Below, piece by piece: positions 187 through 36,245 of a DNA stretch of 37,694 bases. Under the pieces are notes generated by a model that saw only the letters and a program-made list of their open reading frames with translations, did not search any database and was not told where the DNA came from. Source of the DNA: Candidatus Woesearchaeota archaeon (GTDB lineage: Archaea > Nanobdellota > Nanobdellia > Woesearchaeales > 21-14-0-10-32-9); the NCBI GenBank assembly GCA_007131205.1, contig SLQZ01000062.1, positions 1 through 37,694 of the forward strand, given 5' to 3'. The translations under genes and the position numbers were made by a program. Within the stretch, counting starts at the first letter, position 1; every line of letters begins with the position of its first letter.

Positions 187-1143
187 ATGGACAATGATTT
201 TGCTTATGAAAAAGAAGTCGTGTCGAGAAACCTCGACGAGGTAGTAGGCCAGGAAGATGTTAAGAACCAGCTCAAATCAGCTATCCTGATGAGGCGCCAC
301 GTCATAATAGTAGGGCCTCCAGGGATTGGGAAGACAACCCTTGCCAGGAGCATAGCAAGGATACTCCCAAAAAGGAAAAAAATGGATGAGGAAACAGGGA
401 AGGAATTTGAGAAAGAGCCTGTTTTTGTAAGGGTTCAGGGAAGCCCTGACCTGACCGCTGAAGACTTAATAGGCGATATAGACCCTGTCAAGGCGTTGAA
501 GCACGGACCGCTTTCCAGGGAGGCTTTTACTCCGGGAAAATTGTTCAAGGCTGACGGCGGAATATTGTTTTTTGATGAAGTGAATAGGTGCAGTGAAAAG
601 CTGCAGAATTCATTGTTGCAAGCGTTGGAGGAGAGAAAGGCCACTATCGGAAGCTACGATGTTGACTTGGATGCTGACTTTATATTCATCGGGACTATGA
701 ATCCAGAGGAAGCAGCCACTGAGCCATTAAGCGATGTATTCCTGGACAGGTTTGACTTAATCTACATGAAGCCTCCTGCAACGATTGATGAAGAGCTTGA
801 AATAGTAGACTTGAAAGGAAGGAAACTAGTTGGCTTCCCAGAGGATTTACTAGTTAAGACAATATCTTTTATTAGGACGCTTAGAAATAGCAAGGACTTG
901 GAGAAGCATCCTTCTGTGAGGGCGAGCCTCGGAATTTATGAGAGGGCGCAGAGCAATGCTTACCTTGACAAAAGAAAAGAAGTGAATATTAATGATGTGC
1001 AGGAAGCAATGGTATCTGTTTTAAGCCATAGAATAAGGCTTAAGCCTTCCTTGAAGTATTTGAAGAGTGCGTCTGAGTACGTAGCTGAGCAATTCTCAGA
1101 GTTTGCTGAGGATGAAAGAATTACAAAGGGTGGTGGCCCGTAG
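187..1143 (+). CDS. AAA+ ATPase, ChlI/BchI-MoxR type
   Basis: Walker A GPPGIGKTTLA, Walker B ILFFDEVNR, and GTMNPEE...LDRFDL (ChlI-type sensor/arginine-finger region). Length 318 aa. Confidence 0.8.
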   Translation: MDNDFAYEKEVVSRNLDEVVGQEDVKNQLKSAILMRRHVIIVGPPGIGKTTLARSIARILPKRKKMDEETGKEFEKEPVFVRVQGSPDLTAEDLIGDIDPVKALKHGPLSREAFTPGKLFKADGGILFFDEVNRCSEKLQNSLLQALEERKATIGSYDVDLDADFIFIGTMNPEEAATEPLSDVFLDRFDLIYMKPPATIDEELEIVDLKGRKLVGFPEDLLVKTISFIRTLRNSKDLEKHPSVRASLGIYERAQSNAYLDKRKEVNINDVQEAMVSVLSHRIRLKPSLKYLKSASEYVAEQFSEFAEDERITKGGGP

Positions 1144-2371
1144 CAGGGAGCACAGCTTTACAAGTGAAGAAACAGAATTCTTAAAACAAGAAGACAGGAC
1201 TAGTGTTGAGAAAGGGAGCGCTGAGGAACTTCAAGGGAAGCTCGGCAAGGATAACAGGGAAGACAAATTAATGCACACCGTTATGGATGTGGACAAGGAC
1301 AAGGTTGAAAAGGCCTCTGTTTTAACCGATGCCATTAACAATAATATTTCTAGCTTTACACCTGACCTTACATTTGAGCAAATGGTAAACAATTACCGGA
1401 ACGCAAAGAAACTAATGGGAGAAACACTGATCCGTGAGCTAACAGGTTACGAGCCGGGATTCGTGGAAAAAAACATTCGTGTACCTGAATTTCAAAGGGA
1501 GCTAAAGGAAAGAATAAAGCAAAACACTGACAAGCTCAAAAAAGAAGGCTTGTTAGATCCTAAAGGATTTATCACAGAGCAAGCTTATGATTACGAAGCA
1601 TTATCTATGCTCTCTGAAGAACTGGATGAACTGGAAGGCAAGGGATTGCTTGGAAGAAAAGAGAGCAGGAAACGAAGCGAATACGGCGAAAAACAAGAGG
1701 TTAGGCCTTACAGGACAGGGGATAAATACAGGAATATAGCATGGAGGCAAACCGTAAATAAAAGCATAAGAAGAGGGCATGAAGAGCTAGTAAAAGAAGA
1801 CTTTGTTGTAAATGAAAAAATGTCTAAGGGAAAAATAAATGTTATTTACGCACTGGATAATTCTGGCAGCATGAAAGGAAACAAAATCAAAGTGGCAAAG
1901 AAATCTGGCATTGCCCTAGCTTACAAAGCCACGCAACACAACGACAAAGCAGGATTATTAGTGTTTAATTCAAAGATAGATAGAGCAATTATGCCTACGC
2001 ATGACTTTGAAATAATGCTCAGAGAAATAGCAAGGATAAAAACTACTGGTGAAACGGATATCGCGCTATGCATTGAAAAAGCGCTAGAATTATACCCAAG
2101 CAGCAAGGAAACCAATCACTTAATACTACTAACAGATGCATTGCAAACACTTGGAAAGAAGCCTGAACAAAAAGTGCTTGAAATGACATCGAGAGCAGCA
2201 AACGCAAAGATAAGCATATCAATCATCGGGATTAACATGGACAGGAAAGGCGAAGAGCTCGCCAGGAAAATAGCAGATATAAGCAAAGGCACCTTATACA
2301 AGGTAAGAAACCTTGAAGAAATAGACAGCATAATCCTGGAAGACTACTACCAAACAAAAACACACCTCTAA
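1112..2371 (+). CDS. von Willebrand factor A (vWA) domain protein, ChlD C-terminal-like, with a charged N-terminal region
   Basis: MIDAS motif DNSGSM, then ...TTGETD... and LILLTDA in the C-terminal ~190 aa. It overlaps the upstream ATPase gene. The start is uncertain: TTG 1103, ATG 1112 or GTG 1130/1133. Confidence 0.75.
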   Translation: MKELQRVVARSREHSFTSEETEFLKQEDRTSVEKGSAEELQGKLGKDNREDKLMHTVMDVDKDKVEKASVLTDAINNNISSFTPDLTFEQMVNNYRNAKKLMGETLIRELTGYEPGFVEKNIRVPEFQRELKERIKQNTDKLKKEGLLDPKGFITEQAYDYEALSMLSEELDELEGKGLLGRKESRKRSEYGEKQEVRPYRTGDKYRNIAWRQTVNKSIRRGHEELVKEDFVVNEKMSKGKINVIYALDNSGSMKGNKIKVAKKSGIALAYKATQHNDKAGLLVFNSKIDRAIMPTHDFEIMLREIARIKTTGETDIALCIEKALELYPSSKETNHLILLTDALQTLGKKPEQKVLEMTSRAANAKISISIIGINMDRKGEELARKIADISKGTLYKVRNLEEIDSIILEDYYQTKTHL

Positions 2372-4449: not shown

Positions 4450-5217
4450 TTATTTCTTGGCTTTGAGCTTGTAGATAAAGTAAACAGCTATTACGGTAAA
4501 TGCAAGTGAGAGGTATTGGCCAGTGCTAATTCCTAATAGTATTGCTTCACCTGCAGGGTCTCTTAGGAAGTCAAGGAAGAACCTCGTAGAGTTATACAGC
4601 AATACGAAGTACCAGAATAAGAGGCCTTCTTTTAACTTCCATGTCTTGCTTACAAAATATAGTGCTCCTGTGAGGAAGAAGTCTTTTGCAGCAGCATATA
4701 ATTGGTAGGGATGCCTGCAACCGTCGAATCCTGGGAAGACAACGCACCAAGGAGCATCACTCCTCGTACCAGGGAGCTCACCGTTGATAAAATTCGCTAT
4801 CCTTCCCAGAGCCAAAAAGAAAAAAGCAGGGAGCGCCATCAAGTCTGCTAATGAATAAAACCTTATCTTGTACTTCCTGGAAAAAAGAAGTATTGCTATT
4901 ATTGCTCCGATTAGGCCTCCGTGGAAAGACATGCCTCCGTGCCACACCATGAATAATTCCAAGGGATTTGAGAGGAGAACTCCCGGGGAATAAAAGATAA
5001 ACGTAAAGATTCTCGCTCCTAATATTACGCCTGCTAGCAGGTAAAGCATGAATACTTCAAGCTTGTCCTTGTCCATGCCCTTAATCATGCCTTTCTTTAC
5101 CCTGCTGGACATATAGAAATATATGAATAAGAAGCCGAGGAAGTACACTAGGCCATAATACCTTACTTGCAGGAATCCTAAGTCCAGCAAAACCGGGTTA
5201 ATGTTATGTATAAACAA
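4450..5217 (-). CDS. lgt: Prolipoprotein diacylglyceryl transferase (bacterial-type Lgt)
   Basis: VRYYGLVYFLGF, WHGGMSFHGGLIG, GRIANFINGELPG, HPYQLY and FLRDP motifs matching Lgt. Polytopic membrane protein. Confidence 0.8.
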   Translation of the reverse strand: MFIHNINPVLLDLGFLQVRYYGLVYFLGFLFIYFYMSSRVKKGMIKGMDKDKLEVFMLYLLAGVILGARIFTFIFYSPGVLLSNPLELFMVWHGGMSFHGGLIGAIIAILLFSRKYKIRFYSLADLMALPAFFFLALGRIANFINGELPGTRSDAPWCVVFPGFDGCRHPYQLYAAAKDFFLTGALYFVSKTWKLKEGLLFWYFVLLYNSTRFFLDFLRDPAGEAILLGISTGQYLSLAFTVIAVYFIYKLKAKK

Positions 5218-9576: not shown

Positions 9577-10305
9577 TCACTTCTTCTGTGCGGGCTTCGC
9601 ATCCGCAGGGGCTGCTTGTTTTGGCGCAACCTTATTAATAATTTCTTCTGGGATGCCCGCTGCTTCCATTGCCTTCCTAGCCTGGTCCGGCTTATCCTCA
9701 TGCTCCTTTAATATTCCTTGGGCAGCCTTCTCGAACTGAGCCCTCTTAGCCTCAAGCTCTTGCTGCATTTTCTTCCTTTCTTCCTCTAACTCTTTTTGCT
9801 CTTCAGCAGTAATCTCGGTTTTCTCTTCCTTGATTTCCTTATCAAACCTGCCTTGCTCCACAAGGGTTATAGCCTCTGCTGCTGGCACTTCCTCAACCTT
9901 AACGCCGAGTGACCTGCAGGTTCCAATTACTTCTTTTACCTTTTCCTTGAGCGTTTTTCCTGTAAGCGAATCCTCTTTCATCTTTGCAATCTTTATTACC
10001 TGCTCTATCTTCAAGTCACCCACAAAATCTGTTTGGGGCCTTCCAGAGCCTTTATCAACGCCAGCCTCTTTTTTTACAAGAGCTGAAGCAGGCGGGGTTC
10101 CAATGGAAATATTATATTCTTTAGTATCAGAATCAACGGTGACCTTAACAGGAACCTGCATTCCCTTAAAGCTGCCGGTTTTCTTGTTAATATCAGCAAT
10201 AACTTGCCCGATATTTACACCTAGCGGCCCGAGCGCAGGGCCTAGAGGCGGAGCAGCTGTTGCCTTTCCTCCCTCTATTAATACGTCTACTGATGTTGAA
10301 GCCAT
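9577..10305 (-). CDS. rpl11: Ribosomal protein L11 (uL11) with ~80-aa charged/Ala-Pro-rich C-terminal extension
   Basis: GGKATAAPPLGPALGPLGVNIGQV..IN..T..FKGMQVPVKV...GTPPAS. The core ends near aa 160, then EEKTEITAEEQKELEEERKK...APKQAAPADAKPAQKK. Confidence 0.9.
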   Translation of the reverse strand: MASTSVDVLIEGGKATAAPPLGPALGPLGVNIGQVIADINKKTGSFKGMQVPVKVTVDSDTKEYNISIGTPPASALVKKEAGVDKGSGRPQTDFVGDLKIEQVIKIAKMKEDSLTGKTLKEKVKEVIGTCRSLGVKVEEVPAAEAITLVEQGRFDKEIKEEKTEITAEEQKELEEERKKMQQELEAKRAQFEKAAQGILKEHEDKPDQARKAMEAAGIPEEIINKVAPKQAAPADAKPAQKK

Positions 10306-11255: not shown

Positions 11256-12356
11256 TTAGTCTACAAATGTTATTCCGAGCTCAGATTCTGCTTCTTTCCT
11301 CTTGTTAGTTTCTGATTTTGCAAAGCCCCCAGCGATTATCTGGCTGGATTTCACGCCGGTAACAACAATCATAACTTTTATGGAGCCTTCTAAGTCATCT
11401 GAAATCTGTGCTCCCCAAATCATCCTTGCATCTTCGTCAAGCTTCTCAGATACTTTTTCTACTACTTTTCTCGCTTCCTCTAAAGTCATGTCGTTGCCGC
11501 CAGCAACGTTTATCAGTGCGCCATTAGCACCTGTGATATCGACGTCAAGCAAAGGATTGTTTATTGCTTTCTCCACGGCTTCAACGGAGCGGTTATCCGA
11601 ATCAGATTCCCCAACTCCTATCAATGCTACGCCTCCATCACCCATGACAGTCCTGATATCTGCAAAGTCAAGATTGACAAGGCCTGCCTTCGTGACGAGT
11701 TCCGCAACGCCCTTAACCGCGTTAGTCAGTATTTCGTCTGCGATCTTAAAAGCTGTATGCAATGGCAGGTCCGGTGCAAGCTCTAAGAGCTTATCATTCG
11801 GTATTACTATGAGTGTATCAACATTTTTCTTTAGTGAGTCCAATCCCATTATCGCGTTTTCGTACCTTCTCTGGCCTTCCATCTTAAAAGGAATTGTTAC
11901 TATCCCCACGGTTAGAGCTCCTGTTCTTTTGGCCATTTCGGCAACTATTGGTGCTGAGCCCGTTCCGGTTCCTCCACCTAAGCCGCATGTTATGAATACC
12001 ATATCTGCACCGGCTATTGCCTGCTTTATGTCATGCTCGGATTCACGTGCGGCTTCTTCGCCGAGCTTAGGGATTCCTCCCGCGCCCAATCCTTTGGTGG
12101 TATCCCTTCCTATGAGTATCTTCCTGTCAGCTGACGTGTAAAGCAGGTCCTGGGCATCCGTGTTTATGCCTACGGTCTCCGCGCCAACTATACCTATTTC
12201 GGTTATCCTGTTTATGGTGTTATTCCCGCCTCCGCCGCAACCGAACACTTTTATCTTGGCTTTTTGCTTGCTTAAGAGCTCTTCCAGCTCTGCGTCAAGC
12301 GCATTGTTCTTGCTTTGTACGTCGGCTCCTTTTACTTCTTTAATAGTATAGGTCAT
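11256..12356 (-). CDS. ftsZ: Cell division GTPase FtsZ
   Basis: [24 protein letters not shown] (tubulin signature), NDKLL. Confidence 0.95.
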
Positions 12357-12428
12357 TGATTAACCCTCCTTAGTTTTGCTGAAAGGCTTTTCCCCTTCGC
12401 CTTAATGATTTTTTGTGCATCTGAATAT

Positions 12429-13145
12429 TTAAACTTTGTTATTCTCTTTAGATTCTTTCTTCTTCTCTTCTTTGCCTTTAGCTTTGAACTCTGCTTCAAT
12501 GCCCAAAATTCTCTTTATGTCTTCACTGAGCATTTTAAGGTATTGCTCCGGGATTTCTTGTAGTAGTGTTATTACTGCTTTTCCTTCTTTTGCTTCTGCT
12601 TTTTCGTAAGGAATCCTAATGATGTCAAGAATTGACTTTACTTTTTCTTCGGTATCCTCTATTTTTTTCTTTATGTTTAAGTCGTAAACCACTTCTTTTC
12701 CTGCTAAAGGATGGTTAAAATCCACTATTACCCTTCCTCCGCTTACATTCCTCACAGTTCCGAGTTGGTTGTCTATGTTTAGCTGCAAGCCTATGTATGG
12801 CTGAATATTTTGCTTTTTAAAGACGTTCATAGGTATTAATTTTAGCTGCTTTGGGTTCTTCTTGCCGTAAGCTTCGTCAACAGAAAGCTTTACCTCGTGC
12901 TTGCCAAGAGTAAGGCCTTCAAGCTTTTTGTCAAGGCCGGAAAGAACGTGTTTTTCTCCTACGCAGATCTTTATGGGCTTGTACTCTTCCTCGTGGCTAT
13001 GGTCATAAGACTTGTCAGGGCTGTGTTCGTGTACGAGGCCTGCTTTTTCAGCTTCTTTTAAAATAGTGGTGTCGTAAACTTGGTTGTCATCAGCAGTCCT
13101 GGCTGTGTACTCGAGCTCTACGAAGTCGCCTTTTTTTATCGTCAT
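12429..13145 (-). CDS. FKBP-type peptidyl-prolyl cis-trans isomerase (long archaeal SlyD/FKBP26-like) with K/E tail
   Basis: KKGDFVELEYTAR, GLDKKLEGLTLGK, VDFNHPLAGKEVVYDLNI. Confidence 0.8.
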   Translation of the reverse strand: MTIKKGDFVELEYTARTADDNQVYDTTILKEAEKAGLVHEHSPDKSYDHSHEEEYKPIKICVGEKHVLSGLDKKLEGLTLGKHEVKLSVDEAYGKKNPKQLKLIPMNVFKKQNIQPYIGLQLNIDNQLGTVRNVSGGRVIVDFNHPLAGKEVVYDLNIKKKIEDTEEKVKSILDIIRIPYEKAEAKEGKAVITLLQEIPEQYLKMLSEDIKRILGIEAEFKAKGKEEKKKESKENNKV

Positions 13146-16562: not shown

Positions 16563-17342
16563 TTAGTTCAATGTGCTTTTCAGCCTTCTAACGCTTAACT
16601 TCAAGTAATCTTCTTCTTTATCTATGCCGATGTACTTTCTTCCGTGCATGCTTGCGACCAGTCCTGTTGTTCCTGAGCCGTTGAAAGGGTCCAAAACAAC
16701 ATCTTTTTCGTTGGTGCTAGCCAGGACTATTCTTTTTAGTAGCTCTATCGGTTTTTGTGTTGGGTGTTTGCCTGATTTCTTTTCTTGCATCGGGGTTAAA
16801 GGAATTTTCCATATACTTCGCATTTGTTTTCCTTTCGGGCTTATATCATCGTGCCATTCTTTCATTTCTTTATAATTGAAAGTGTGCTTTGCTTTCTTGT
16901 CTTTTTTAGCCCAAATAATGGTTTCATGGGCGTGGGCGAAGTATCTGCAGGAGAGGTTTGGAGGCCCGTTTGGCTTAAACCACGAGATTTCGTTTAAAAT
17001 GTGAAATCCTAATGCCTGTAACGCATGCCCTACTTTGTATATGCTATGAGGAGTGCCTGAAATCCATATTGTTCCGTTAGGTTTTAAGAGTTCTCTGCAG
17101 TGTTTTAGCCAGGAATAAGTGAATTCGTAGTCTTTCTGGAAGCCATTTGATTTATCCCAGTCTCCCTTGTTGACAGAAACCATTTTTCCTGCTTTGCATG
17201 TTATTCCGCCGTTGGATAAATTATAAGGAGGATCTGCAAATATCATGCTTACCGAATTCTTCCTGATTTTTGGCAATACTCCGAGGGAATCTCCTTTGAT
17301 TAGCATGAAATTCTTGTCTTTGAAGAATGGTTTAATAGTCAT
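16563..17342 (-). CDS. Beta-class DNA N6-adenine methyltransferase, DpnA/M.MboIB-like
   Basis: Motif IV before motif I: IFADPPYNLSNGG ... GDWDK ... NGTIWISG ... PNLSCRYF ... GKHPTQKP ... VLDPFNGSGTTG. From memory it is collinear with S. pneumoniae DpnA. Confidence 0.85.
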   Translation of the reverse strand: MTIKPFFKDKNFMLIKGDSLGVLPKIRKNSVSMIFADPPYNLSNGGITCKAGKMVSVNKGDWDKSNGFQKDYEFTYSWLKHCRELLKPNGTIWISGTPHSIYKVGHALQALGFHILNEISWFKPNGPPNLSCRYFAHAHETIIWAKKDKKAKHTFNYKEMKEWHDDISPKGKQMRSIWKIPLTPMQEKKSGKHPTQKPIELLKRIVLASTNEKDVVLDPFNGSGTTGLVASMHGRKYIGIDKEEDYLKLSVRRLKSTLN

Positions 17343-17440
17343 GTAATGCTAAGAATCATACTTGTTTATATTTGTTGTGTGGACTTGTCCAGTGCATCTT
17401 TCAGGTTAACCGGAAGATTTACGAAAAAAATGGGAAAATA

Positions 17441-17450
17441 TTTATATTTA
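17441..17450 (+). promoter_or_regulatory. TATA box (TTTATATTTA) about 26 nt upstream of ATG 17472; suggests a leaderless or short-leader transcript for the orphan ORF
   Basis: AT-rich element read directly. The spacing to the ATG matches archaeal TATA-to-TSS distance. Confidence 0.4.
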
Positions 17451-17471
17451 TTTAAAAAGGATGATACCATT

Positions 17472-18089
17472 ATGAATCGCCAGGAACTATTTGAAATTGT
17501 TAAAAATCTTGAGTTCGATAAAAAAATAAGTATTATAGAGGAGAATGGTGTTGAATTATACTTATTGAGGCCTTCTGTACTCCCTAAATCTCTTAAAAAC
17601 AAATATGATGTAAATAAAAATTTTCAGATATGGGTTAAAGAAGGGGAGCGAGAATTCAGACCGAATCATCTTCGTTTAATTATCGACTTAAATCTTAGAG
17701 TCAGGTCTAATCCTGAATTAAAAAATAAGTTACTCTTAGCAATGGACAATATTTTTTATGGGGAAGATGTTGAGAAAGAAATATCTTTGTTAAACAAGGA
17801 AAAATTCCAACATTACCTTAACCCATTGAGAATAATAGCATATATGGCCTTGCTCTTTTTGATAGAACAAGAATATAACTATACGGGAGAAAGTAAGTAC
17901 GATCCGAAAACCTTGTTTTTGCAAGGTTGGATACGGGAAAGCATTGATAGCCCAAAGGAATTAGACAACATGTGCATGAGTATAGCTAACGGGCAACCCC
18001 CAAAAGCCAAATATACTTGTAAGGAAAATAAAAAACATAAGAAATACGAAGAAAAAAGAAAAGAGTTGTGGTATCTGGAAGATCAATAA
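17472..18089 (+). CDS. Orphan protein between the two methyltransferases; candidate restriction endonuclease of unrecognised family
   Basis: 205 aa from ATG 17472; the ORF is open from 17346. No DpnII-family, HNH or GIY-YIG signature is visible. The only weak PD-(D/E)XK-like string is IIDLNLRVRSNPELK. The 3' end overlaps the Dam-like gene by 7 nt (convergent). Confidence 0.4.
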   Translation: MNRQELFEIVKNLEFDKKISIIEENGVELYLLRPSVLPKSLKNKYDVNKNFQIWVKEGEREFRPNHLRLIIDLNLRVRSNPELKNKLLLAMDNIFYGEDVEKEISLLNKEKFQHYLNPLRIIAYMALLFLIEQEYNYTGESKYDPKTLFLQGWIRESIDSPKELDNMCMSIANGQPPKAKYTCKENKKHKKYEEKRKELWYLEDQ

Positions 18090-18910
18090 TTAGTTACTAC
18101 AACCTCGTCTATTTCTCCCCTTCCTTTAGCGTCGCTGTTAATACTTCTCCTGGCTTTTACTTTCCTAATATTATATCCTTTGTACAGTTTATGGATTAGT
18201 TCGCTGTCGCTGTTGCTAAGCATTACTTTGCAGCCTTTTGCATCTAGCTTCATGAAAACTTCTGCTAATCTGACCTGGTCTTCCCGGCCAAAATCCAGGT
18301 CGGTGTAACTAGTGAAATTATTCTTTTTGAAAGGCCAATATGGAGGGTCGAGATAAACAAAGTCGCCTTTCTTAGCTGTTTCAAGGACTTTTTTGAAGTC
18401 TTGAGCTTTTGCCACAACATTTTTTAGTAAATGACTTGCTTTTTTCAGTGTTTCTTCTCTGACAATCTCAGGGTTTTTATAACTCCCTATGGGTACGTTA
18501 AATTCGTTTTTCGAGTTCACCCTAAACAATCCATTGAAACACGTCCTGTTCAAATAAAGGAGTAAAGCTGCTTTTTTCAAAGAGTCTTTTTCCTTGTTAT
18601 AAGCATTTCTAGCTTCGTAATAATAATCTTTTGAGTGATTTTTAGCATGTATTCTTAGGAGTTTTATTAGCTCTGAGAGGTTATCCCTTATCTGGACGTA
18701 TAGATTTATGAGTTCTGAGTTGTAGTCGGATAAGAAAATTTTTTTTGGATTAAATTTTTGTTTTACGTGGAAGAATACTGCTCCACCGCCTACGAATGGC
18801 TCGCGGTATACTTCTATGTTTTCTGGGTAGAACTCTTCGAATTTGGAGAGTAACTGTTTTTTACCCCCTGCCCACTTTACAAACAACGGAATCTCAACCC
18901 CCATAAACAA
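18083..18910 (-). CDS. Alpha-class DNA adenine methyltransferase, Dam/DpnM family
   Basis: KWAGGKKQLL, EPFVGGGAVFF, FNGLFRVNSKNEFNVP, GDFVYLDPPYWP, VMLSNS, VVTNY. From memory it is collinear with DpnM/Dam. Confidence 0.9.
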   Translation of the reverse strand: MFMGVEIPLFVKWAGGKKQLLSKFEEFYPENIEVYREPFVGGGAVFFHVKQKFNPKKIFLSDYNSELINLYVQIRDNLSELIKLLRIHAKNHSKDYYYEARNAYNKEKDSLKKAALLLYLNRTCFNGLFRVNSKNEFNVPIGSYKNPEIVREETLKKASHLLKNVVAKAQDFKKVLETAKKGDFVYLDPPYWPFKKNNFTSYTDLDFGREDQVRLAEVFMKLDAKGCKVMLSNSDSELIHKLYKGYNIRKVKARRSINSDAKGRGEIDEVVVTNY

Positions 18911-33323: not shown

Positions 33324-33560
33324 TTAAAGGATGTCTTCTATAGGGGCTTTTCTCTTGGAGCCAGAGCCAGCATCCTTAGAAACCTCTTTAGCCTCTTTCT
33401 CAACATCAACACCAAGCTCTTTTAATGCACCGATATGCATCTGCATTAGCTGCTCCACAATACTAACAATCCTCGTCAATTCCTGGCGCTCCTTAGCCAG
33501 CGTTGAAAGAGAACCCTTATGAAAACCTATTTGCTCGTCCCTAGATTGCTTTTCCGCCAT
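33324..33560 (-). CDS. Small hypothetical coiled-coil-like protein (78 aa)
   Basis: ORF upstream of and co-oriented with the 411-aa gene. Heptad-like LAKERQELTRIVSIVEQLMQMHIGALKEL. AGGAGGT-like SD upstream. Confidence 0.4.
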   Translation of the reverse strand: MAEKQSRDEQIGFHKGSLSTLAKERQELTRIVSIVEQLMQMHIGALKELGVDVEKEAKEVSKDAGSGSKRKAPIEDIL

Positions 33561-33670
33561 AAAAAATACCTCCTTTTAGCTACTAAAAGAATTGAAAGGA
33601 CTAATATTATTTAAACTTATTGCCTTGAAAACAGCAAGAAATATAAAAAAGCAGGTAATATTCATAAATA

Positions 33671-35641
33671 ATGATTCTGGGAAAGATCACAGGAAAAACC
33701 ACCACGAACGAATTCAGGTTCGTAGCAGAAAAAGAGACAAGGAAATTCGAATACCTACAAGTATACCACGAAGTATACGAATACGTTCTCTGCCAGGTAG
33801 TCGAGATAGAAAAGCAAGAGCAGGAAACAATAGCGTATTGCCAAGCAATAGGGTACAAGGACAATGGCCGGGTAAAAAAGCCAAGGATACCCTTCACGCC
33901 AGGCACAGAAGTATTAGAAGCTGAAAACGAATTCATAAGAAGCATAATAAGCCTGGAAAAAACAGGGGAGCCAGCATACATTGGCAAGCTTGACGGGAAA
34001 GACGTGGATGTATTCCTAGACCTTAACAAGGTGCTTTCAATGCACTTAGCTGTACTAGCAAAATCGGGGAGTGGAAAATCATACGCGGTAGGAGTATTGC
34101 TTGAGGAGATAATCAGCAGGAAAATCCCTGTAATAGTCATTGACCCCCATGGAGAGTATTCCTCAATTAAATACAGAAATGAAGAAAAATATGATGTTGA
34201 AAGACTAAAGCTGGCAGGGCTCAGCCCGGAAGGCTACAGAGTGGAAGAATACGGGGACACAAGCATATTGCCGGATACTAAGCCGTTAAGGCTGGGCAAC
34301 CCGTTAAGCCAAGACGAATTAATGCATTTGATACCGGGAAAGCTAAGCAACAGCCAAACAGCGGTATTGTACAGCAGCCTGAAACACGCGTCAGACTTCG
34401 AATCCCTACTCCTTGCGCTTGAGCAAGAGGAAAGCAGCGTAAAATACAGCATTATAAGCATGGTAGAATACATAAAGAGCACAGGGGTATTCTCAAGAAA
34501 CCCGACGCCTATCCAGGAATACCTAAAGCCGGGAAGCTGCACAATCATAAACCTGAAAGGAATGAGCCCGGATGTTCAAGAAGTAATTGTTTACAAGCTA
34601 AGCAAAGACTTGTTCGAGGCAAGGAAGAAGAGCCAAGCACCCCCTTTCTTCTTAGTTATAGAAGAAGCCCATAATTACTGCCCTGAGCGAAGCTTTGGCG
34701 AGACAAAGGCAAGCAAAATACTGCGAAATATCGCTTCCGAGGGAAGAAAGTTTGGATTAGGCTTATGCGCTATAAGCCAAAGGCCTGCAAGGGTTGACAA
34801 GTCAGTGCTAAGCCAATGCAGCACGCAAATATTATTAAAAGTTACAAACCCTAACGACGTGAAAGCAATAAGCAGCTCGGTTGAGGGAATAACAAGCCAT
34901 GCAGAAAGAGAGCTTCAAAACCTGCCAATAGGGAATGCGATGATTACAGGCATCACTGATGTCCCTTTGCTGGTGAACGTGAGGCCAAGGAAGAGCACTC
35001 ACGGCGGAAAAACCCATGGGATGCTGGAAGAAAAGAATTTCTTGGAGCAAGCGGAAGAATTCGGCGAAGAAGACCTTATCGGAATAATAAAGCCGAACAT
35101 ATCCCCAAAAGACATAATGCTTATGTCTGAAAAGCCAATTGAAAAAATCAGGGTAATCCTAAGGCCTTGCGTACTGGCAGTCTGCGAGGACGGCAACAAA
35201 GAATACAAGCTGCTAATAGACATAAACAGGAAAGGAATTATAACTGATAAGGAAACAGGCTCTGTGAAAAAAATACCTTTCATTAAACAGCTCTCACAAG
35301 GCGAAATAAGCATTTTAAGGCATGGGTTTAAGAAAGGCTCTTTCACTCATGAGCAGGCAACAAGCGTATTAGGCAGGGACGCGCATGCTGAGCTGGAAGG
35401 CCTTGCTGGAAAAGGGCATGTTGAAAAAAAGGGAGGAACATACTCCGTGTCAGATAAGTACGTGTTTTCAAAGCTTTCAAAACATGAGACTCACGAAAAA
35501 ATATCTTATGAGAAAATCGGGTATGATGAAAAAGAAGATGAGCAAGAGGATGAAGAGCTATTAAAAAACCTTGGGGCCCTTACAAGGATAAAAGAAAAAA
35601 ATCGCTGTTTCCTAGTTGTATATGAGCCTGATTATAAATGA
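33671..35641 (+). CDS. HerA/DUF87-family (FtsK-HerA superfamily) P-loop ATPase with C-terminal ~200-aa extension containing a winged-helix-like segment
   Basis: N-terminal HAS-barrel-like region, Walker A LAKSGSGKSYAVG, Walker B FFLVIEEAHNY, CAISQRP. The C-terminal LSQGEISILRHGFKKGSFTHEQATSVLGRDAHAELEGLAGKGHVEKKGGTYSV resembles a wHTH. Confidence 0.75.
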   Translation: MILGKITGKTTTNEFRFVAEKETRKFEYLQVYHEVYEYVLCQVVEIEKQEQETIAYCQAIGYKDNGRVKKPRIPFTPGTEVLEAENEFIRSIISLEKTGEPAYIGKLDGKDVDVFLDLNKVLSMHLAVLAKSGSGKSYAVGVLLEEIISRKIPVIVIDPHGEYSSIKYRNEEKYDVERLKLAGLSPEGYRVEEYGDTSILPDTKPLRLGNPLSQDELMHLIPGKLSNSQTAVLYSSLKHASDFESLLLALEQEESSVKYSIISMVEYIKSTGVFSRNPTPIQEYLKPGSCTIINLKGMSPDVQEVIVYKLSKDLFEARKKSQAPPFFLVIEEAHNYCPERSFGETKASKILRNIASEGRKFGLGLCAISQRPARVDKSVLSQCSTQILLKVTNPNDVKAISSSVEGITSHAERELQNLPIGNAMITGITDVPLLVNVRPRKSTHGGKTHGMLEEKNFLEQAEEFGEEDLIGIIKPNISPKDIMLMSEKPIEKIRVILRPCVLAVCEDGNKEYKLLIDINRKGIITDKETGSVKKIPFIKQLSQGEISILRHGFKKGSFTHEQATSVLGRDAHAELEGLAGKGHVEKKGGTYSVSDKYVFSKLSKHETHEKISYEKIGYDEKEDEQEDEELLKNLGALTRIKEKNRCFLVVYEPDYK

Positions 35642-35678: not shown

Positions 35679-36245
35679 ATGAATGGAGAGAACCTAACTG
35701 AGCTGAACTTGCTTGGAGGGATAAGCCCCTTGCTTACAGATATAGGGATAGCTATAATCATATTGCTTCTTGGCTTTATAATTGGAAAGGTCACGCGGAT
35801 ACTGCTTGAAAAAATATTGCTTGAACTCCAAGTAGATAAAGGGCTGAAGGCAATAAAGAGGAATATATCCCTTAGGAAATCACTGCCTATTCTTATGAGC
35901 ATAATAATTTATTCGATAGCTGTAATGCTTGCGCTTAACCACTTAGGAATATTAGAAGCAGTGCTTAAGGCAATCTTAGCTTTAGTGCTATTGATATTGG
36001 CTGGGTCAATAATTTTATGGCTATCACATTTACTTCCTAATGTAGTTGCAGGATTCAAGCTGAGGTCAAAGAAGGATTTCACGGAAGGCATGATTATAAA
36101 GAGCAAGGTCGTGCGAGGCAGGATAAAAAAGATAGGCTTCCTGAAGACAAGGATAGAGAGCGAAGAAGACACATACCTAGTGCCTAACTATTCCCTTACA
36201 AAGAAAAAGAGCCCTATTGGGAAATATGAAGTGGCAAAAAAATAA
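35679..36245 (+). CDS. Truncated MscS-like mechanosensitive channel family protein (TM region plus start of beta domain only)
   Basis: 3-4 TM helices, then FTEGMIIKSKVVRGRIKKIGFLKTRIESEEDTYLVPNYSL, matching the MscS G..v...g..G.V..I.l..T.i....g....IPN..l segment. Only 188 aa. Confidence 0.5.
   Translation: MNGENLTELNLLGGISPLLTDIGIAIIILLLGFIIGKVTRILLEKILLELQVDKGLKAIKRNISLRKSLPILMSIIIYSIAVMLALNHLGILEAVLKAILALVLLILAGSIILWLSHLLPNVVAGFKLRSKKDFTEGMIIKSKVVRGRIKKIGFLKTRIESEEDTYLVPNYSLTKKKSPIGKYEVAKK

Follow-up and report, generated by a model that had tools for sequence, protein, structure and literature searches.

The stretch of DNA analysed here, 37,694 nucleotides of contig SLQZ01000062.1 from a Candidatus Woesearchaeota archaeon (the 37.7-kb window), encodes a 656-residue HerA-family ATPase close to one end. 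A first-pass annotation, made by a model from the sequence alone, had read this protein as an orphan HerA ATPase fused to a DNA-binding module, and possibly as part of a defence system. The reading that we favour is a HerA-type ATPase inherited vertically throughout the Woesearchaeota-type DPANN archaea, a group of tiny symbionts, and likely a NurA-partnered translocase to which a private domain has been appended, and we hold it with about as much confidence as doubt. The gene and the parts of its product, predicted with AlphaFold2 and scored by the predicted local distance difference test (pLDDT), are the following.

33671..35641, forward strand: HerA-family ATPase gene (Pfam DUF87, Foldseek match to 4d2i, more than 100 full-length homologs).
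33639..33650, forward strand: candidate archaeal promoter, TATA-like element AAATATAAAAAA, which ends 21 nt upstream of the ATG (read from the sequence).
33671..33970, forward strand: HAS-barrel domain, residues 1–100 (AlphaFold2 beta strands 2–83 and helix 86–92, pLDDT about 90; weak Pfam match).
33971..35008, forward strand: RecA-like ATPase core, residues 101–446, with a helix-bundle insert at about 205–285 (invariant columns; AlphaFold2).
34058..34081, forward strand: Walker A motif or P-loop AKSGSGKS, residues 130–137 (A130, S132, G133, G135, K136 and S137 invariant in 89 sequences).
34646..34675, forward strand: Walker B region FFLVIEEAHN, residues 326–335 (F326, F327, E331, E332 and H334 invariant).
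34772..34804, forward strand: ISQRPARVDKS motif, residues 368–378 (Q370, R371, P372, A373, R374, D376 and K377 invariant).
35009..35065, forward strand: acidic flexible linker, residues 447–465, with conserved F464 (pLDDT below 50, median charge −4).
35066..35284, forward strand: module 1, residues 466–538, beta-rich (AlphaFold2 pLDDT about 90; kept in the clade of short variants).
35285..35458, forward strand: winged-helix insertion, residues 539–596 (AlphaFold2 helices 543–555, 560–567 and 572–581, hairpin 584–593).
35459..35638, forward strand: C-terminal tail, residues 597–656, made of a helix, a strand, an acidic loop and helix, and a long last strand (AlphaFold2).

The open reading frame (ORF) of 656 codons plus a stop codon is real by the ORF list of the window, and its N-terminus, MILGKITGK, is kept in the alignment of homologs. 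The TATA-like element upstream is a putative promoter. Pfam DUF87 (PF01935, the HerA central domain) matches residues 103–313 at 1.6e-32, with 113.8 bits against a cut-off of 23.2, and the Pfam HAS-barrel model matches residues 4–50 below threshold (19.4 against 25.2 bits). Profile matches to HerA chains in the PDB cover positions 71–464. By sequence as well as by fold, the top PDB matches are HerA of S. solfataricus (Sso HerA, 4d2i) and HerA of T. kodakarensis (Tko HerA) in its complex with NurA, with single-sequence scores of 124 and 122 bits, respectively. The top NCBIfam models are two equivalogs for HerA of double-strand-break repair, NF040937 and NF040819. Public records label the homologs as 'ATP-binding protein' or 'HerA-like ATPase' and nothing more specific.

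We built an AlphaFold2 model of the full protein as a monomer on 89 sequences (mean pLDDT 87.3), in which the placement of the C-terminal extension relative to the core is undefined. The nearest structure to the whole model in Foldseek is Sso HerA (4d2i; E 1e-32, TMt 0.75, about 510 columns), and the T. kodakarensis HerA from the NurA complex (9x1m) is also among the closest. Between strands 190–195 and 289–294, AlphaFold2 places helices over residues 214–284, and the helix-bundle (HB) call rests on this secondary structure and on the global TM-score. As modelled, the protein has each of the parts that define the HerA clade structurally, namely a HAS-barrel, a P-loop core and an HB insertion. 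DUF87, AlphaFold2 and Foldseek together bear out the proposal that the N-terminal ~450 residues are a HAS-barrel plus HerA core, and the proposed GSGKS, FFLVIEEAHN and ISQRP motifs are real and invariant in 89 homologs. Additionally, K131 of Walker A is near-invariant. From our knowledge of the family, we take the ISQRPARVDKS motif to be a candidate sensor or arginine finger. A helix of the HAS-barrel, AE(D/N)xFI at residues 84–92, is nearly invariant in the alignment of 89. The HAS/RecA/HB layout of HerA has been described, and NurA of T. kodakarensis docks on the HAS alpha1 helix, which it contacts (PMC12977600). By analogy, the AE(D/N)xFI helix of the window protein may dock NurA as well.

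The family is broad, and it is confined to one kind of archaeon. Among 5.8 billion proteins we found more than 100 homologs of 640–690 residues with 99–100% query coverage and 50–84% identity. Every named homolog comes from a metagenome-assembled genome (MAG) of Woesearchaeota, Nanoarchaeota or DPANN, and the alignments run across the C-terminal 200 residues without large gaps. Searching one genome per GTDB species gave at least 560 candidate loci; of these, the 80 top-ranking ones all come from Woesearchaeota or Nanoarchaeota MAGs (41–84% identity). ORFs were called and clustered in 84 loci, and profile hidden Markov model (HMM) tests were run over 83 of them. Several records from third-party-annotation MAGs labelled 'uncultured Methanosarcinales archaeon' (L006, L008, L011, L016, L020 and others) hold loci that are clearly of Woesearchaeota type, and these labels are probably wrong.

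We ran a profile built on the C-terminal ~207 residues over 1.84 billion representative proteins, and it matched 145 representatives and no others. All 145 matches lie at the C-terminal end of ~650-residue proteins or of intein-bearing forms of 1050–1340 residues, or in short fragments. Because the profile matches are confined to the C-terminal end of family members or to fragments, the extension is private to the family and family-wide. Phage and plasmid collections contain HerA-like cores, and no record in them covers the extension. The orphan reading does not survive this distribution, since the same architecture runs through the Woesearchaeota and Nanoarchaeota; the extension is therefore a common feature of housekeeping HerA orthologs within this lineage, an outcome that the first-pass annotation had itself named as counting against its proposal. 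Its suggestion of an undescribed variant holds up better. A HerA-family ATPase with an undescribed extension that includes a winged helix is supported, and in the literature we found no description of this family or of the extension.

The intein-bearing orthologs (P0117, P0141, P0146, P0154, P0161, P0163, P0168, P0171, P0173, P0179, P0180 and P0237) carry insertions at five positions: ~136 in the P-loop, C337, ~356, ~366 and ~378. Pfam confirms Intein_splicing and LAGLIDADG domains at four of these sites, and the basis for the fifth, 337, is a precomputed Pfam match of P0117. Six representative homologs use the P-loop site, which is Pfam-confirmed in one (P0163). In P0117 and P0154 the intein follows Y336 and sits at C337 (EEAHNY|C337), just past Walker B. 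The copy in the window has no intein. Catalytic motifs that inteins have entered more than once are typically those of conserved, important ATPases, and we use this as supporting evidence only. Taken with the distribution, the gene looks like a conserved housekeeping HerA of the whole lineage and not like a defence system.

Canonical HerAs stop about 20 residues past the aligned core, as Sso HerA does in the alignment. In the window protein, residues 466–655 form an extension that is confidently folded in AlphaFold2, with a pLDDT of 88.6 when modelled alone. The linker before it is 70–170 residues longer in four homologs (P0057, P0099, P0142 and P0152) and has a conserved motif, EF(E/D)ExxLLPxIKP. 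Module 1 is the best-conserved part of the extension (IKP, KD, LxP, C505, DKE, K533 and P536), and the conserved residues of the tail are F599, L602, Y618, D628, F637, T638, D642 and C646. Conserved polar positions are K474, K480, D481, K527 and K533 in module 1 and D628, D642 and C646 in the tail. What had been called an acidic tail is instead an acidic loop and helix (residues ~619–637) within the folded domain, whereas the C-terminus itself is a beta-strand, CFLVVYEPDYK.

Over residues ~450–656 there was no match in Pfam, NCBIfam, PADLOC or PDB sequences, and a PDB sequence-profile search with the extension gave nothing under E 0.08. A few family members show weak MarR, Penicillinase_R or TFIIE matches in the extension, and nothing stronger. 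Thus, the check that had been proposed, a domain search of the C-terminal 200 residues, found no known family and the extension stands as undescribed. In Foldseek searches of the PDB and BFVD, the winged helix alone was matched, and module 1 plus tail found no fold match. We also considered a PD-(D/E)xK-type nuclease in module 1 (D507, E517, D526-K527-E528 and K533) and dropped it because there is neither canonical spacing nor a match to a nuclease fold.

The winged-helix segment (residues 541–593) has a pLDDT of about 90 and a topology of three helices followed by a hairpin. Its Foldseek matches include MarR, AspA, PBP2, Sso10a, ScpB, the cullin WHB domain and Z-alpha, over 55–70 residues with a root-mean-square deviation (rmsd) of 1.3–2.6 Å and probability 1.0, yet with weak E-values of 0.04–0.2. 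In the model, residues 539–596 are a winged helix-turn-helix (wHTH) fold with three helices and a hairpin wing. The claim of about 200 extra C-terminal residues with a wHTH-like segment is upheld at the level of fold.

Eight of the 83 species loci encode orthologs without the winged helix (L054, L058, L070, L071, L073, L076, L081 and L082). These proteins are 603–643 residues long, and in most of those loci the HerA gene lies near position 10001. L080, at 598 residues, may be a ninth case. In these variants module 1 (...IKP..KD..LMS...LxP...C...G.IIxDxD) runs straight into the tail (...Y..K......FT.V.D..EC.LV.Y), without the ~60-residue winged helix between them. Because module 1 and tail are joined in its absence, the winged helix is an insertion in a two-part domain and not the core of the extension. 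Across the 89 sequences its median net charge is 0, that of the third and putative recognition helix is −1, and that of the wing is −1. No position holds Lys or Arg in at least 70% of the sequences, so that conserved basic residues are absent, and conservation is confined to the hydrophobic core (L541, L549 and L578). As judged from these sequences, a canonical DNA-reading role of the winged helix is doubtful, and the description of the protein as a DNA-binding fusion is weakened by the neutral charge, the lack of conserved Lys or Arg and the eight species without the wHTH. Since the winged helix is uncharged, has a poorly conserved surface and is dispensable, the extension is likelier to be a protein-interaction or regulatory domain than a sequence-specific DNA reader, and a tethered interaction or regulatory domain is the more likely reading.

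The case for NurA as partner draws on genomes related to that of the window. In archaeon AR15 (L001/L009) and four further species, a NurA gene recognized by Pfam (313–329 residues) lies 2–4 kb downstream of HerA on the opposite strand. The AR15-like NurA scores 26 bits against a Pfam cut-off of 21 and stands next to topoisomerase IA; HerA and NurA are convergent there and 3–4 genes apart. Profiles of this NurA matched 729 protein clusters at first and at least 1466 afterwards, from MAGs of the same kind; NCBI names many of these clusters NurA, and their D/E/D/H columns do not vary. In 13 pairs of HerA and NurA clusters the longest contigs are of identical size. On two other Woese-type or DPANN-like contigs NurA is solitary amid housekeeping genes and not beside another HerA, and a reciprocal NurA-profile scan of metagenome contigs likewise returned mostly solitary NurA genes. 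As a separate observation in several DPANN-like lineages, topoisomerase IA adjoins NurA or is close to it (L001 13683–16946, L085 1688–9029 and L153 7590–11083), which may be a conserved association.

Canonical nurA-herA-mre11-rad50 operons, with a HerA of 511–514 residues, occur at six loci (L144, L145, L158, L159, L164 and L165), which sit on mesophilic metagenome contigs. At L100, a 514-residue HerA lies ~4 kb upstream of NurA without Mre11 or Rad50. We considered these 514-residue HerAs as a second, NurA-partnered HerA of Woesearchaeota and rejected the idea. The contigs that they are found on measure as much as 2.06 and 2.46 Mb and carry conflicting labels (Thermoproteota, Korarchaeota and Gerdarchaeota), and the L100-type contig has genes for NrdR, a U32 peptidase and hemerythrin, which are untypical of DPANN. 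Because contigs, labels and genes point away from DPANN, these loci are uninformative on Woesearchaeota. Additionally, the operon-encoded 514-residue HerAs score 81 and 69 bits to Sso and Tko HerA, compared with 124 and 122 bits for the window HerA. L030 encodes a distant HerA-like ATPase of 440 residues (11670–12992, reverse strand; 24% identity) 3.4 kb from a family member.

On the favoured reading, residues 1–446 would form a hexameric ring for ATP-driven pumping of double-stranded DNA, as canonical HerA does; the fold and the intact motifs point this way. Its most probable partner would be a NurA nuclease whose gene lies at another place in the genome and which would dock at the HAS-barrel face the way NurA of T. 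kodakarensis does, and the two would make up a HerA-NurA machine for processing DNA ends whose operon has been scattered. The two-part beta/alpha domain formed by module 1 and the tail, with the winged helix inserted in most lineages, would be tethered to the ring by the flexible acidic linker. Six such C-terminal domains would then hang at the face opposite the HAS-barrels and may serve partner binding or regulation.

Several observations weigh against this reading. As had been noted, NurA, Mre11 and Rad50 are absent from the window. No locus of this family has a HerA-NurA operon, and Mre11 and Rad50 were not found within 10 kb of any of the 84 loci. The first-pass annotation had asked whether NurA lies in a conserved operon with an ortholog: linkage at 2–4 kb exists in one sublineage, and an operon does not. 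Among the best 120 of at least 1466 NurA matches, NurA is not shown for the window's own sublineage (contigs of L002, P0017 and P0025). A second HerA may be present in these organisms beyond the loci and contigs scanned, and the 440-residue paralog of L030 is a HerA-like protein without HAS-barrel or extension. Finally, the two repair equivalogs fail their thresholds, NF040937 with 146.3 bits against a cut-off of 800 and NF040819 with 143.9 against 970.

The window itself is a typical archaeal core region, with genes for RNA polymerase A'/A''/B'/B'', aIF5B, a PUA protein, FtsZ, L11 and Spt5, and further for S12, prefoldin beta, Pcc1, RpoP, L37ae, UPF0147 and two tRNAs. In every sublineage examined HerA lies among translation, transcription and tRNA-synthetase genes, including exosome genes, Rpb6 and ribosomal proteins. 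The commonest neighbours are Cbf5/TruB, an Asn-synthase-like PP-loop protein, a radical-SAM enzyme, acylphosphatase and Hjc; L31e, S19e, aminoacyl-tRNA synthetases and RNase J are also common. Synteny between L002 (54% identity) and the window extends over the genes between aIF5B and L37ae, these two and mini-MscS included; L003 has HerA behind an exosome/Rpb6 cluster, and in L001 HerA sits amid sugar-metabolism genes. Neighbourhood conservation, which had been proposed as a check, yielded no neighbour family common to more than 19 of the 84 loci.

Immediately downstream of HerA in the window is a mini-MscS gene (35679–36245, forward strand; 188 residues, with a transmembrane helix and beta-domain only), which starts 37 nt past the HerA stop. 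Elsewhere the downstream genes are an Asn-synthase-like gene, a Na/Ca exchanger or Cbf5. Upstream and divergent from HerA is a gene for a 78-residue protein (33324–33560, reverse strand), from a small and highly conserved family known from 15 sequences of 51–71% identity with the motif EQIGFHKGSLSTLAKERQEL...IVEQLMQMH...LGVDL...KKPIEDIL and no Pfam or PDB match. We considered both as obligate partners and rejected them: by profile HMMs, mini-MscS lies within 10 kb in 16 of 83 loci, its nearness to HerA being conserved in a sublineage, and the 78-residue gene lies within 5 kb in 18 of 83 and is adjacent in ~10. Because of these counts, neither is family-wide. The Asn-synthase-like PP-loop protein (~300 residues) begins 3 nt past the HerA stop in L001 (9998–10918, forward strand), and in 15 loci it is the first or second gene after HerA, on the same strand, where it may be co-transcribed with HerA.

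Other features of the window lie apart from HerA. An island resembling a type II restriction-modification system (16563–18910) holds two DNA methyltransferases (N6_N4 and Dam-type, PADLOC ~330 bits each) and, between them, a 247-residue ORF (17346–18089) with no family match, possibly an endonuclease. It falls in a low-GC stretch (0.35–0.37 against ~0.43), is 15 kb from HerA and is the sole defence-like element of the window. At 4450–5217 on the reverse strand is Lgt, a bacterial-type prolipoprotein diacylglyceryl transferase (PF01790, 3.5e-60). A MoxR-type AAA+ ATPase followed by a VWA/DUF58 protein (187–2371, forward strand) represents a widespread chaperone-like pairing with no relation to the HerA finding.

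Among other explanations, the motor of an anti-virus defence system of the SIR2-HerA or DUF4297-HerA type, with the C-terminal domain as sensor or effector adaptor, has in its favour that HerA ATPases without NurA are recurrent defence motors, with solved examples among the Foldseek matches, and that the protein matches the PADLOC HerA models at up to 160 bits. However, these are generic HerA models alone, and PADLOC, one of the checks that had been proposed, found nothing in the four flanking genes. No defence effector adjoins HerA in any of the 84 loci. The antiphage NCBIfam models score below the repair models and far under their cut-offs (NF042943, 108 against 800 bits; NF042944, 97 against 850), and in Foldseek the defence HerAs rank behind, at E 1e-21 to 1e-25. 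Defence genes are patchy, whereas this family is lineage-wide, ~50% identical across species, in housekeeping synteny and invaded by inteins in its catalytic motifs, and no phage or plasmid record has the extension. The defence-like reading of the first-pass annotation is thus highly improbable. Equally slight are the chances of a membrane-coupled ATPase that transports DNA or protein together with mini-MscS, in a Ced/Ted-like or conjugation-like manner. The same-strand MscS-like gene of the window recurs in L002, L004 and L030, and NCBIfam shows weak similarities to CedD, CedB, VirB4 and TraD. Against this, mini-MscS directly follows HerA in no more than 4 of 83 loci, CedD and CedB fail their thresholds (81 bits against 600 and 26 against 700), and the 37-nt spacer holds a T-run and a TATA-like element. 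Of the earlier proposal of a membrane protein 38 nt downstream, the adjacency remains, at 37 nt, and a membrane coupling is not supported.

The main rival, which we consider unlikely though with more to be said for it, is that the protein is a NurA-independent, FtsK-like DNA pump that would act in the division of FtsK-less, FtsZ-dividing DPANN by segregating or clearing chromosomal DNA. The order of motor, linker and wHTH mirrors the alpha/beta motor, linker and gamma domain of FtsK. The gene is standalone, single-copy and strongly conserved among core genes with no operonic nuclease, FtsZ is encoded in the window, and a relationship of HerA to FtsK with a possible division role has been raised (PMC12977600). 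On the other hand, there is no N-terminal membrane anchor and a confident HAS-barrel occupies that place, neither FtsK_SpoIIIE nor Ftsk_gamma of Pfam matches the protein or its extension, and the wHTH has no conserved basic residues, with eight of 83 species doing without it altogether. NurA, moreover, is widespread in the phylum and linked in one sublineage. Still more of a long shot is that the extension itself makes the HerA ring such a NurA-independent chromosome motor of ultra-small DPANN, its six domains recruiting the pump to the division site or a host-contact site. If true, this would be the first concrete candidate for the long-hypothesised role of HerA in archaeal chromosome segregation.

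HerA is a well-studied DNA motor whose role outside thermophiles is unsettled. Here, a large group of uncultured archaea is seen to retain a standalone HerA of high conservation, with a private, confidently folded C-terminal domain. The protein is a defined construct with which the function of HerA apart from the nurA-mre11-rad50 operon can be probed. The family is useful to work on archaeal DNA repair and DPANN biology and may contribute a new domain for classification; it is no new kind of system. A recent paper questions end resection as the main job of HerA (PMC12977600).

Compared with known systems, the window protein is closest to canonical HerA (Sso 4d2i; Tko HerA-NurA 9x1l/9x1m), with which it shares the order of HAS-barrel, RecA-like ATPase and helix bundle as well as the catalytic motifs. 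Unlike canonical HerA, it has ~190 extra C-terminal residues behind a flexible linker, and its family lacks the nurA/mre11/rad50 operon, lives in mesophilic DPANN hosts and has inteins in orthologs. It shares with the antiphage HerAs (SIR2-HerA and DUF4297-HerA; 8j4u, 8wld, 8ziq and 9c1m) the HerA fold and the lack of a NurA operon but differs from them in having no adjacent effector, a lineage-wide distribution, a housekeeping context and a sequence closer to the repair HerAs. Similar to FtsK/SpoIIIE, which belong to the same superfamily, it would combine a ring motor, a flexible linker and a C-terminal winged helix; in contrast to them it has a HerA-type core and no membrane domain, and its wHTH is inserted in another domain, uncharged, dispensable and of unrelated sequence. 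Small archaeal winged-helix proteins (the MarR family, AspA, PBP2/SSO6202 and Sso10a) superpose on residues 539–596 with the rmsd given above, whereas the window wHTH has no significant sequence match, a net acidic putative recognition helix and a wing that is not basic. To the Ced/Ted ATPases the scores are far under cut-off, and the sole membrane neighbour of the window HerA is mini-MscS.

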